7,358 bases of DNA, from IMG/VR virus record IMGVR_UViG_2703718800_000016, positions 1-7,358 of that record, one strand, 5' to 3'. Origin of the DNA: a virus (lineage: Duplodnaviria; Heunggongvirae; Uroviricota; Caudoviricetes). Made by a program: the position numbers and the translations under genes. Each line of letters begins with the position of its first letter. Within the stretch, counting starts at the first letter, position 1. Shown in pieces: positions 2,886-6,838 of the stretch. Below the pieces are notes generated by a model. That model did no database searches, was not told the DNA's origin, and saw only the letters and a list, made by a program, of their open reading frames with translations.

Positions 2886-3171
2886 AAACCGCTTGCAAAA
2901 AATTATCACGGGGCTGTATGCTTCCCGCGTCACCCACATGGTGACCGGGTTTGACAGCCTGAATACTACAGCGGACAGCCGCTTACATTCCGATATGCGG
3001 TTTTTTTGTGTCCGTAAACCTACCCATACCCGCATTATGGCGGGGCGTAACGGGGGAGCCTTTGCGCTCGCTGGTTCCTGTAGTGCCAGTCTGTCAACCC
3101 TGTTACGTCTCGCCACCATGTTTGACAGCGTAGTAGCGAGACTCCTTAATTTCACTACAGGAGCCTTTCAC

Positions 3172-3790: not shown

Positions 3791-4090
3791 ATGAAACTTA
3801 AATATTCTGGCTTAACTGCCAGTGGCAACACTCACCCTAAATTTACGCGCGGTGATATTTACCGCGACCAGTACGGCGGCACGGTAATGATTAAGGGCGT
3901 GGCGGGACGGTGCGTAACTTACCGCCGTGAAGGTTACGAATATGATTGCGTGATGCCTGTTTATCAGTTCCGGCGTGATTTTTCTCTGGTACAGGCAGCG
4001 CCCCGCAGTAAACCAACCAGCAGGGAGAAAGCACGCGCCAATATTCAGGAAATAAGAAAGATGTTGAATGTATTCAGGGGTAAAAAATGA
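3791..4090 (+). CDS. Hypothetical small protein translationally coupled to the primase gene
   Basis: 99 aa (MKLKYSGLTASGNTHPKFTRGDIYRDQYGGTVMIKGVAGRCVTYRREGYEYDC...). GGAG lies 10 nt before the ATG. Its stop overlaps the primase start (ATGA at 4087-4090). GC content is normal, about 53% in a hand-counted 60-nt sample. By position it is analogous to the small genes preceding alpha in the P4 replication operon; that is inference only. Confidence 0.6.
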   Translation: MKLKYSGLTASGNTHPKFTRGDIYRDQYGGTVMIKGVAGRCVTYRREGYEYDCVMPVYQFRRDFSLVQAAPRSKPTSREKARANIQEIRKMLNVFRGKK

Positions 4091-5835
4091 AACTTGCACC
4101 GAACGTAAAAAAACAACCACGCGGAATAAAACACAAAGACACAGAGGTAATTATTTTCGCGGGTAGTGATGCGTGGGCACATGCAAAACAGTGGCAGGAG
4201 CAGGACGGCCCCGCATCCGGCGATAATGTGCCGCCTGTGTGGATTGGGCCAAATCAGCTTGCCGAACTTGATGCACTGAAAATTGTTCCTGATGGAAAAA
4301 AACGCGTAAGGCTGTACCAGGCCGGAGAACTGGATTTGGTGGAGACCAAAAAGATTGGTCAGAAGCTGGCGGCGGCAGATATTCAGGACGCAAATTTTTA
4401 CCCCGAAGGAATGCACGTCCAGAAGTGTGAAAACTGGCGGCGCTATCTGAATGCTGAGCGTGAAAATATTGCCGCAGGGCTTACCATGCCGGAGCAGAAA
4501 AATACGCAACTGGCACAAATGGCAGACAGTGAGCGCGCGCAGCTGCTTGCCGAGCGCTTTGATGGCGTTTGTGTGCATCCGGAAAGTGAAATCGTTCACG
4601 TATGGCGCGGCGGGGTATGGTGTCCGGTCAGCACAATGGAACTTAGCCGCGAAATGGTGGCGATCTATTCAGAGCACAGGGCCACTTTCAGCAAGCGCGT
4701 AATCAATAACGCCGTGGAAGCGTTAAAAGTTATTGCCGAACCAATGGGCGAGCCGTCCGGCGATTTGTTGCCGTTCGCCAATGGTGCGCTTGACCTGAAA
4801 ACGGGGGAATTTTCCCCGCACACGCCGGAGAACTGGATCACCACGCACAACGGCATTGAGTACACGCCACCAGCACCAGGGGAGAATATATGCGACAACG
4901 CGCCAAACTTTCATAAATGGCTTGAGCACGCAGCCGGAAAAGACCCGCGCAAGATGATGCGTATATGTGCCGCGCTGTACATGATTATGGCGAACCGGTA
5001 CGACTGGCAGATGTTTATTGAGGCCACCGGAGAGGGCGGTAGCGGTAAAAGTACATTCACGCACATAGCCAGCCTTCTGGCAGGGAAACAGAACACGGTA
5101 AGCGCTGAAATGACCTCACTTGATGATGCTGGTGGACGTGCGCAGGTTGTCGGGAGTCGTCTTATCGTCCTGGCTGACCAGCCGAAATATACAGGCGAAG
5201 GAACGGGCATCAAGAAAATCACGGGCGGCGACCCCGTGGAAATAAACCCGAAATATGAGAAGCGTTTTACGGCGGTAATCAGGGCGGTGGTGCTGGCTAC
5301 CAACAATAACCCGATGATATTCACCGAGCGGGCCGGAGGTGTGTCACGCCGTCGGGTGATTTTCCGGTTCGACAACATTGTAAGGGAGGACGAAAAAGAC
5401 AAGGATTTGCCGGAGAAGGTCGCGGCTGAAATCCCCGTAATTATCCGTCGCTTGCTGGCTAATTTTGCCGACCATGAAAAGGCACGGGCTTTATTACTGG
5501 AACAGCGCGACGGTGATGAAGCTCTGGCAATAAAGCAACAGACGGATCCGGTTATTGAGTTTTGCCAGTTCCTGAATTTTCTGGAGGAAGCACGCGGCCT
5601 GATGATGGGCGGCGGTGGCGATTCAGTGAAGTACACGACCAGAAACAGCCTTTACCGCGTCTATCTGGCGTTTATGGCATACGCAGGCAGGAGCAAACCG
5701 CTAAACGTGGCTGAGTTCAGCAAGGCCATGAAGCCAGCGGCAAAAGTTTACGGACATGAATATATTACGCGGAGAGTTAAGGGAGTAACGCAGACCAACG
5801 CAATTACAACTGATGATTGTGACGCGTTTTTATAA
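4087..5835 (+). CDS. Replication initiator: primase-associated SF3 helicase (P4-alpha / D5-like C-terminal NTPase; PICI Pri-Rep-like)
   Basis: 582 aa. Walker A GEGGSGKST and Walker B-like RLIVLADQP lie in the central region, matching the phage/plasmid primase P4-family C-terminal helicase domain. The classic P4 alpha primase motif EGYATA is absent, so the N-terminal domain is of uncertain type. Shine-Dalgarno GGGG 6 nt before the ATG. It is immediately followed by the iteron cluster. Confidence 0.9.
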   Translation: MKLAPNVKKQPRGIKHKDTEVIIFAGSDAWAHAKQWQEQDGPASGDNVPPVWIGPNQLAELDALKIVPDGKKRVRLYQAGELDLVETKKIGQKLAAADIQDANFYPEGMHVQKCENWRRYLNAERENIAAGLTMPEQKNTQLAQMADSERAQLLAERFDGVCVHPESEIVHVWRGGVWCPVSTMELSREMVAIYSEHRATFSKRVINNAVEALKVIAEPMGEPSGDLLPFANGALDLKTGEFSPHTPENWITTHNGIEYTPPAPGENICDNAPNFHKWLEHAAGKDPRKMMRICAALYMIMANRYDWQMFIEATGEGGSGKSTFTHIASLLAGKQNTVSAEMTSLDDAGGRAQVVGSRLIVLADQPKYTGEGTGIKKITGGDPVEINPKYEKRFTAVIRAVVLATNNNPMIFTERAGGVSRRRVIFRFDNIVREDEKDKDLPEKVAAEIPVIIRRLLANFADHEKARALLLEQRDGDEALAIKQQTDPVIEFCQFLNFLEEARGLMMGGGGDSVKYTTRNSLYRVYLAFMAYAGRSKPLNVAEFSKAMKPAAKVYGHEYITRRVKGVTQTNAITTDDCDAFL

Positions 5836-5849
5836 TTTTTTGTAAAAGC

Positions 5850-6073
5850 CCTCTACCCCATCTACCTGAATGAAATAAACGCATATTATTCAACATGATA
5901 AGTGGGTAGAGGGCTAGGTAGAAGGCTAATAAAACCTCTCTACCTCTTCTACCATGATTAAGATCGTTTGTGAGGGGCGGGTAGAGGATGGGTAGAGGGC
6001 CACGAAAGCCCTCTACCCATCTGAAAGCCGCGCCATTACTGACATGAAAGATGATTAGGTAGAGAGGTAGAGG
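5850..6073. repeat. Iteron cluster / putative origin of replication
   Basis: Eleven copies of the 8-mer GGTAGAGG or its complement CCTCTACC (core GGTAGA), arranged as adjacent pairs of alternating orientation at 5850, 5859, 5905, 5917, 5937, 5946, 5980, 5991, 6010, 6058 and 6066. They are separated by AT-rich spacers such as 5867-5904. Two longer units AAAGCCCTCTACCC-CATCT recur at 5845 and 6005. The cluster sits directly downstream of the primase/helicase stop. Confidence 0.7.
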
Positions 6074-6199
6074 AGGTGCACCACAACCTAAAACTTTTTA
6101 AACACGAGGGTAAAAATAAAAATGCACACATCAGGAAGATTTAACAAATCACTCAAAAAACGCAGAGACAGAACAGAACCGAAATATCGCGCGTTAGAC

Positions 6200-6401
6200 A
6201 TGACAGAGCACGCTTTAAAGGTGGCAATCAGAACGATAGACCGCCACGCGGGGGGAAGGATACGCGAAAGCACATCCCGAACTGATAAGCGCATTCATGA
6301 CCACGACGGCGGCAAATTTTGCCACGCTGACAGAACGGGAGATTGCCGAAGCGGAACAGGTAACAACCATCAACGTTAAAACCGGAGAGGTGGAATCATG
6401 A
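6200..6401 (+). pseudogene. Small protein gene apparently interrupted by a 1-nt frame change at a G6 homopolymer (6250-6255); may be an assembly/sequencing indel or a genuine frameshift
   Basis: The frame from ATG 6200 (MTEHALKVAIRTIDRHAGG...) runs into an arginine/glycine-rich, non-protein-like tail ending at 6379. The +1 frame from 6252 reads GEGYAKAHPELISAFMTTTAANFATLTEREIAEAEQVTTINVKTGEVES and ends with TGA overlapping the ssb ATG (ATGA at 6398-6401). Removing one G would give a continuous ~65-aa ORF coupled to ssb. The track ORF 6122..6379 is the upstream frame. Confidence 0.35.
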
Positions 6402-6808
6402 CAGCACAGATAGCAGCTTACGGGCGGCTGGTGGACGACCCGCAGGTAAAACAGACCAGCAAGGGCACACCAATGACGCTGGCACGTATGGCGGTATCGT
6501 TGCCATGTAGTCAGGCGCAGGATGGGCAGGCGACGTTATGGCTATCGGTCATCGCATTTGGTAAGCAGGCCGACTTCCTGGCTAAACATCAAAAAGGCGA
6601 CGTTGCCAGCGTATCCGGCACGATGCAGGTCAGCCAGTGGACCGGACAGAACGGGGAAACGCGGCAGGGTTATCAGGTTATTGCAGACAGCGTAATCAGT
6701 GCCCGTGCGGCACGTCCTGGCGGGAACAGACGCAAAACCACAGGCACACAGGGTAATCAGCCACCAGCGGGAGACGATGACCCCTACGGGGATAACATAC
6801 CGTTTTAA
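6398..6808 (+). CDS. ssb: Single-stranded DNA-binding protein (compact SSB-like)
   Basis: 136 aa. The OB-fold region aligns by eye to E. coli SSB ([26 protein letters not shown] vs [74 protein letters not shown] vs [49 protein letters not shown]). A short Gly/Pro linker leads to an acidic tip [11 protein letters not shown] (canonical SSB tip is DDDIPF). Shine-Dalgarno GGAGAGG 7 nt before the ATG. Confidence 0.85.
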   Translation: [136 protein letters not shown]

Positions 6809-6812
6809 GCAA

Positions 6813-6838
6813 CGAGTGACAGAAGCCTGAGCAATCCG
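6813..6838 (+). terminator. Possible rho-independent terminator after ssb
   Basis: Short stem AAGCC (6814-6818) / GGCTT (6828-6832) followed by a T-run (6832-6837). The stem is only about 5 bp with a 9-10 nt loop, so this is moderate at best. Confidence 0.4.

Follow-up and report, generated by a model that had tools for sequence, protein, structure and literature searches.

Gene content of the island

The window, by which we mean the whole stretch of 7,358 nucleotides that was analysed, is by its gene content a P4-like phage satellite of E. coli, a phage-inducible chromosomal island (PICI). It comes from draft contig LOGV01000023.1 of assembly GCA_001606675.1. On this contig a DUF3413/sulfatase gene, which we take to be yejM, immediately precedes the island, and an AIDA-type autotransporter gene lies on the far side; in the relative STEC2018-607, yejM is followed by tRNA-Pro at the matching position. 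We found an integrase (Phage_integrase, 5.7e-29), an AlpA-type regulator and a primase/initiator, the set of genes that characterizes PICIs, arranged in a single direction. The match to AlpA is a weak one (E=0.0028; its 17.9 bits fall short of the Pfam cut-off of 21), and PGAP annotates the relatives' copy as a helix-turn-helix regulator.

The P4-type primase, or replication initiator, is encoded at 4087..5835 (+ strand) and matches D5_N (1.1e-15), DUF5906 (2.4e-10) and TIGR01613 primase_Cterm (2.5e-31); the exact protein is deposited as WP_062864043.1 / KYT01938.1. Between the primase gene and the small gene studied here lies a field of iterons (5843..6077), composed of GGGTAGAGG and its variants in both orientations (repeat families D1-D4, inverted repeats I1-I12), which is presumed to be the replication origin. 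The putative origin thus sits immediately 3' of the initiator, the layout described for the iteron origins of Gram-negative PICIs, which directly follow pri/rep (PMC6092414). In EcCICFT073, pri and ori alone were sufficient for plasmid replication (PMC6092414).

Downstream of the small gene, ssb (6398..6808, + strand) encodes a single-stranded DNA-binding protein of 136 aa, identified by Pfam SSB (PF00436, 4.2e-17) and TIGR00621 (1.2e-15) and so annotated in all relatives examined. Its C-terminus, ...DDDPYGDNIPF, carries the acidic tail with a DNIPF tip. A putative Shine-Dalgarno-like sequence, GGAGAGG, can be read at 6384..6390 (+ strand), 7 nt upstream of the ssb ATG. A scan for promoters and terminators around the small gene gave no signal that exceeded the shuffled background.

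No capsid, terminase or interference genes were found in the window. The relatives STEC2018-607 and JNEC-KY203 carry lambda E-like capsid and D-like decoration genes that are absent here, and the perC gene that trails ssb in the closest relatives is also missing, about 274 bp being deleted compared with S19-651 (window 6805-6823 against 10300-10592 of its island L005). The island is a shortened derivative with other signs of decay or streamlining.

A C4 antisense RNA (RF01695) was also detected at window 3033-3120 (+ strand), with 72.3 bits where the gathering score is 45 (E=4.4e-13). Members of this RNA family are the P1/P7 c4 and P4 CI immunity RNAs. In Gram-negative PICIs, relatives of P4 CI and seqA are reported to be picked up by the C4 and isrK profiles (PMC10111431).

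The small gene is divided between two reading frames

The initial annotation had described the small gene upstream of ssb as interrupted at a run of six Gs, and had placed the junction at GGGGGG 6250-6255 and the TGA of the downstream frame over the ssb ATG. Both positions are confirmed by the window sequence, in which two reading frames join at this run and the TGA at 6399-6401 overlaps the ssb ATG at 6398-6400 (ATGA). The frame of the ATG at 6200 is also the frame of an upstream ATG at 6122. From 6200 it encodes MTEHALKVAIRTIDRHAGG and then continues out of frame to a TAA at 6377-6379, giving an ORF of 85 aa when counted from the upstream start (6122-6379). The +1 frame is open from 6240 and encodes TATRGEGYAKAHPELISAFMTTTAANFATLTEREIAEAEQVTTINVKTGEVES, its C-terminal part being ...EGYAKAHPELISAFMTTTAANFATLTEREIAEAEQVTTINVKTGEVES before the stop at 6399-6401. 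In the annotation of the source contig, no gene is called at this locus.

In complete E. coli genomes, the intact relatives of this gene are a single 279-nt CDS for 92 aa with the N-terminus MHTSGKFNKSLKKRRDRTEPKYRALDM. This CDS begins with the ATG that corresponds to 6122 in the window and ends in a stop codon that overlaps the start of ssb. Other lineages encode versions of 80-85 aa whose N-termini vary while the residues upstream of ATG 6200 are retained. Since the intact relatives begin at the equivalent of ATG 6122 and these N-terminal residues are kept, the gene spans 6122-6401, and ATG 6200, at first taken as the start, is its internal codon 27. For the same reason the fused product is 92 aa and not the 65 aa originally proposed. 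The restored frame likewise begins with the codon GAA at 6255, rather than at 6252.

Based on the frame of ATG 6122, the profile match and the annotation of intact relatives, codons 1-44 of the gene occupy 6122..6253 (+ strand) and cover an N-terminal basic tail and helix 1. Codons 45-92 with the TGA (6255..6401, + strand), which carry the conserved motif EGYAKAHPELISAFMTTAANF and helix 2, now lie in the +1 frame relative to the start. The 85-aa ORF itself runs into an out-of-frame tail of 41 codons, GRIRESTSRTDKRIHDHDGGKFCHADRTGDCRSGTGNNHQR, at 6254..6379 (+ strand), ending at TAA 6377-6379.

To which family the gene belongs was seen from the PHROG profile phrog_1231. In the 85-aa ORF, residues 12-44 align with profile positions 3-35 (E=8e-14), and the +1 frame matches positions 35-83 (E=3.5e-31), so that the match passes from one frame to the other exactly at profile position 35. 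Once repaired, the 92-aa sequence is matched in one piece over positions 3-83 of 83 (E=2.9e-51). The conserved motif is likewise present but divided in the window, with ...AIRTIDRHAG on one side of the junction and EGYAKAHPELISAFMTTTAANF on the other. This division of the profile match between two frames indicates that the window holds a frameshifted allele, a pseudogene, of phrog_1231.

The ancestral run is G5 and the restored frame is the coding frame

We compared the junction among relatives. In the closest ones it reads CACGCGGGGGAAGG (G5), and in more distant ones GTAGGGG, ACGCGGG, GCGGGAG or GCCGGGG; every one of these is single-frame. The intact single-frame homologues that the initial annotation had proposed to seek are therefore present, the G5 form in 182 complete genomes and 50 IMG/VR contigs. 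When one G is removed from the window, the exact resulting protein is found as an intact ORF on 20 other contigs, and its K6 variant on at least 1000. Two annotated intact proteins of 92 aa illustrate how close these alleles are. WP_000557476.1 (strain URN1) is 99% identical to the repaired window protein, with the single difference K6R, and WP_000557477.1 (ATCC 25922) is about 95% identical, 5 of 92 residues differing. Their loci have the same position, with the stop overlapping the ssb start, and keep a single frame through G5 or AGGGG, whereas the window has one G more.

The 85-aa product, in contrast to the restored protein, does not look like a conserved gene product. Its exact sequence was not found in a collection of about 15 billion proteins, and no homologue was found that ends where the frame of ATG 6200 ends; the initial annotation had named such homologues, or conservation of the 85-aa product, as observations that would speak against an interrupted gene. 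For the 39 codons past the junction, compared among nine alleles, pN/pS was 0.13 when they were read in the restored frame and 3.3 when they were read as in the 85-aa ORF (0.35 over the whole gene). Taken together, alignment with the G5, AGGGG and GCGGG relatives and the allele counts identify the homopolymer at 6250..6255 (+ strand) as the frameshift site. The run was ancestrally G5, one G has been inserted into it in the window (+1G), and the restored frame is the coding frame.

The phrog_1231 family and its predicted fold

PHROG labels phrog_1231 as ‘unknown function’. The repaired 92-aa protein had no match in Pfam or NCBIfam. In 73 distant relatives phrog_1231 was the sole PHROG-type match throughout, and Pfam gave nothing meaningful for them, with three scattered matches (E 0.002-0.01) in 1-2 members each. 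An exhaustive HMMER search returned 679 representatives of 50%-identity clusters at E <= 0.001. A profile search returned 654 proteins at E <= 1e-5, all labelled ‘hypothetical’, with Pseudomonas, Rhodomicrobium and metagenomes among their sources. The family shares the core motif AI..ID..FG.GYAK.HPELI.AFM.TAA.(D/N)F, which the window retains in divided form. Searching annotated phage genomes by tblastn gave no match for the E. coli protein; a distant family member hit one unannotated Pseudomonas phage. No papers were found in a literature search for phrog_1231.

AlphaFold2, run with 73 sequences, predicts a helical hairpin with a mean pLDDT of 83.7 and about 98 over residues 31-70. The model has helices at residues 20-43 and 52-81, and the turn is formed by G44-E45-G46. 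The frameshift falls at this hairpin turn, in the middle of the near-invariant motif ID..FG.GYAK.HPEL, where a break is structurally severe, and by the model the frameshifted product is one that would retain only the basic tail and helix 1. With the better model as query, Foldseek found no PDB structure at E <= 0.001.

We also examined the genomic context of the family. Distant homologues lie in early regions of prophages and satellites, for example near integrase and excisionase genes, near a DNA methylase, or near HTH_17 followed by a large ORF. Since they are not consistently beside ssb, no function can be transferred from context. In the E. coli loci, which have either a RepA helicase or a P4-type primase as replicase, ssb follows the gene directly, and the stop of the one overlaps the start of the other at every locus examined except GPEC1042, where 12 nt separate them. 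We also observed a natural in-frame phrog_1231-SSB fusion (P0011, 202 aa, on 4 contigs), which arose by a deletion that spans the final codons of the small gene and about 15 codons at the start of ssb. The stop/start overlap, an arrangement typical of translational coupling, and the existence of a natural fusion make the protein a candidate SSB- or replication-associated factor; gene order and sequence thus suggest that phrog_1231 may have a role linked to replication or to SSB.

The G6 allele is confined to one clade

To count alleles we required identical flanks of 34-35 nt. Among 5426 complete E. coli genomes (records), G5 was found 182 times and G6 three times, with no G4 and no G7. IMG/VR contigs, searched for G5 and G6, gave 50 and 2, respectively. 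With the same flanks, G6 was found in none of the JGI metagenome contigs and in none of the GTDB species representative genomes. In total, G6 is carried by eight island copies in six assemblies, namely LOGV01, S19-651 (two copies), STEC2018-607, JNEC-KY203 and two IMG isolate genomes, whose sources are at least Swiss and Japanese.

Over window 5836-6808, from the origin to ssb, no G6 copy falls below 99.2% identity, whereas the nearest G5 loci reach at most 97%. G6 is found in every member of this clade of modules and only there. Over 280 nt the members of the clade differ by a single substitution, at position 6335, which is synonymous in the true frame, and this divergence is too low for a test of relaxed selection. 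PGAP has independently marked the same allele as ‘hypothetical protein; frameshifted’ in RefSeq relatives, at JFY28_RS02850 and JFY28_RS13060 (S19-651), JFX52_RS04070 (STEC2018-607) and AC0JZ7_RS16270 (JNEC-KY203). These loci share with the window the G6 run and the module of primase, origin, small gene and ssb (99.2-99.8% identity), but the islands around them are unlike it in the type of integrase, in the site of insertion and in whether perC or capsid genes are present, and JNEC-KY203 has an additional IS1.

Because G6 tracks phylogeny across independent laboratories, unlike an error, we regard it as one real inherited mutation. As judged from these sequences, the single G insertion arose once, in the ancestor of the near-identical primase-origin-ssb clade. 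The islands that now harbour G6 modules have different integrases and occupy about four chromosomal sites: at tRNA-Pro downstream of yejM, within adeP, beside a prophage tail region, and near clpS. This distribution implies that the frameshift has been no bar to spread of the module by mobility or recombination.

Two of the G6 islands merit separate description. S19-651 contains two islands (L001 and L005) with identical Icd-like, DUF4222, primase, ssb and PerC proteins and the same G6, and with different integrases; one interrupts adeP and the other adjoins prophage tail-fibre genes. The pair suggests that modules are exchanged between satellites resident in one genome, or else that the arrangement is helper-embedded. 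In JNEC-KY203, an IS1 (L007 7166-7863) is inserted near codons 3-7 of the same gene, corresponding to about window 6129-6141, as a second hit.

Weighing the alternative explanations

A homopolymer run invites the explanation that the true sequence is G5 and that the extra G is a miscall of sequencing or assembly. Homopolymer indels are indeed a frequent type of error, and two error-ridden assemblies show G4 and G3 at this run along with many other broken genes. The G6 of the window does not behave in this way. It is identical in six assemblies from different laboratories, it is present throughout the clade of at least 99.2% identity, and none of the 182 and 50 G5 loci elsewhere shows it; random miscalls would scatter across lineages. 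The adjoining primase and ssb genes of the window are also intact. An artefact is thus extremely unlikely, the least probable of the alternatives. Apparent compensated frameshifts at the same run (P0063, with G4 and an upstream +1; P0150, with G3 and A5 shortened to A4) could be taken for a selected indel hotspot. We rejected this reading, since the primases on these contigs are shattered into many small ORFs, which makes the indels assembly errors. The loci L009 (3001-3279) and L010 (3001-3255) are homopolymer errors of this kind that entered protein databases. Another possibility is that the gene has been split into two functional fragments, helix 1 with a junk tail and a 34-aa peptide from ATG 6297. 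The latter ORF does match phrog_1231 profile positions 50-83, but it has no Shine-Dalgarno-like sequence before 6297 and lacks the most conserved motif, GYAK.HPELI.AF. Moreover, no homologue is divided in this way among 166 close and 654 distant database matches, and the break would fall at the turn of a predicted two-helix fold. We consider a split gene very unlikely.

It is also conceivable that the run is read through by leaky or programmed recoding, in which a +1 slip of the ribosome on GGG-G, or a slip of RNA polymerase, yields some full-length protein or a phase-variable switch. In such a model, the tRNA-Gly in the P site would shift its pairing to the overlapping GGG during a pause with GGA in the A site, the codons AGG and AUA coming next. 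GGA, AGG and AUA are rare codons in E. coli, and at programmed +1 sites of the prfB type the P-site tRNA can re-pair in the +1 frame on a run beside a slowly decoded 0-frame codon. The window resembles such sites in that its run permits perfect +1 re-pairing and the next three 0-frame codons are GGA AGG AUA; in addition, every G6 copy still has the downstream frame open and without change, and the lineage has spread. It differs from prfB in that the site is not conserved, no upstream Shine-Dalgarno stimulator is seen at the required spacing, the 0-frame codon is a sense codon, and the run arose by recent insertion in one clade. Outside the G6 clade all homologues are single-frame and the site varies (G5, AGGGG, GCGGG, GGGAG or CCGGGG), so the two-frame architecture expected of programmed recoding is not kept. 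Nor does the tract vary in length among close copies as a phase-variable tract would: G6 is found in 8/8 clade copies, G4 and G7 with identical flanks are absent from the complete E. coli genomes, and the G3 and G4 variants come only from error-ridden assemblies. Apart from the codons after the run, no separate stimulatory element is apparent, with a z of -0.96 for the downstream RNA fold and no distinct upstream SD-like element seen. Six Gs are short for transcriptional slippage or a classical contingency locus, which also argues against such mechanisms, and one copy of the gene additionally carries an IS1. Given the tRNA-Gly re-pairing that the run allows and the GGA-AGG-AUA that follows, low-level leakiness is conceivable at a low probability. 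Overall, recoding in any of these forms is very unlikely, though slightly less so than a split gene or an artefact. We give a very small probability, similar to that of the split gene, to the narrower idea that the G6 allele is alive, with low-level +1 slippage on GGG-G, aided by the GGA-AGG-AUA that follows, still giving some full-length phrog_1231 protein. If so, slippage would explain why the downstream frame stays open while the lineage has spread to several islands and sites, and the tract would serve a phage satellite as a natural means of attenuating a replication accessory protein that is linked to SSB.

Interpretation of the frameshifted gene

Among the three alternatives named by the initial annotation, the recent inactivating mutation is the one that stands, as G6 is rare, limited to one clade and inherited; neither a sequencing error nor a slippage-prone site was borne out. 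We consider it very likely that the G6 run results from a lineage-specific insertion into G5 that arose once, and that the gene is now probably a dispensable accessory pseudogene with little effect on ssb. In this course of events, one G was inserted into the ancestral G5, giving the G6 at 6250-6255. Owing to this insertion, translation from ATG 6122 would depart from the conserved frame past codon 44, run through 41 unrelated codons and end at TAA 6377-6379. The conserved C-terminal 48 codons would then be left untranslated in the +1 frame. The insertion was subsequently inherited, or moved by recombination, into several islands at different chromosomal sites.

The sequences show the mutation, its ancestral state, its single origin and the frame that is conserved; from these observations we infer loss of function, dispensability and the absence of a polar effect on ssb. 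The stop of the shifted frame (TAA 6377-6379) lies 18 nt upstream of the ssb ATG, and ssb has its own GGAGAGG; both make a polar effect unlikely. Judging from this arrangement, ssb should be little affected and should be translated without coupling to the broken gene. An accessory role of the small gene may also be proposed by analogy, being consistent with the sufficiency of pri and ori in EcCICFT073 (PMC6092414). The persistence and spread of the G6 lineage with an open C-terminal frame also fits residual expression by slippage, or a very recent origin of the insertion.

The window can be placed beside the EcCICFT073-type PICIs (Fillol-Salom et al. 2018, PMC6092414), with which it shares the integrase, the AlpA-like regulator, the primase/initiator followed by an iteron origin, and the rightward unidirectional layout; in the window's relatives the likeness extends to ssb/perC downstream. 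It differs from them as a short derivative (~7.4 kb) that lacks perC, capsid-like and packaging genes.

The broken gene is an ordinary lineage-specific pseudogene, already flagged as ‘frameshifted’ by NCBI PGAP in RefSeq relatives. A single-base frameshift pseudogene in a decaying satellite island has little weight for biology, and the value of the finding is in annotation: this locus should be recorded as a frameshifted gene for 92 aa with its start at 6122, and not as an 85-aa or a 34-aa ORF. The family itself is widespread, has a sharp motif and no Pfam entry or PDB neighbour, and phrog_1231 is thus a candidate for a domain-of-unknown-function entry.
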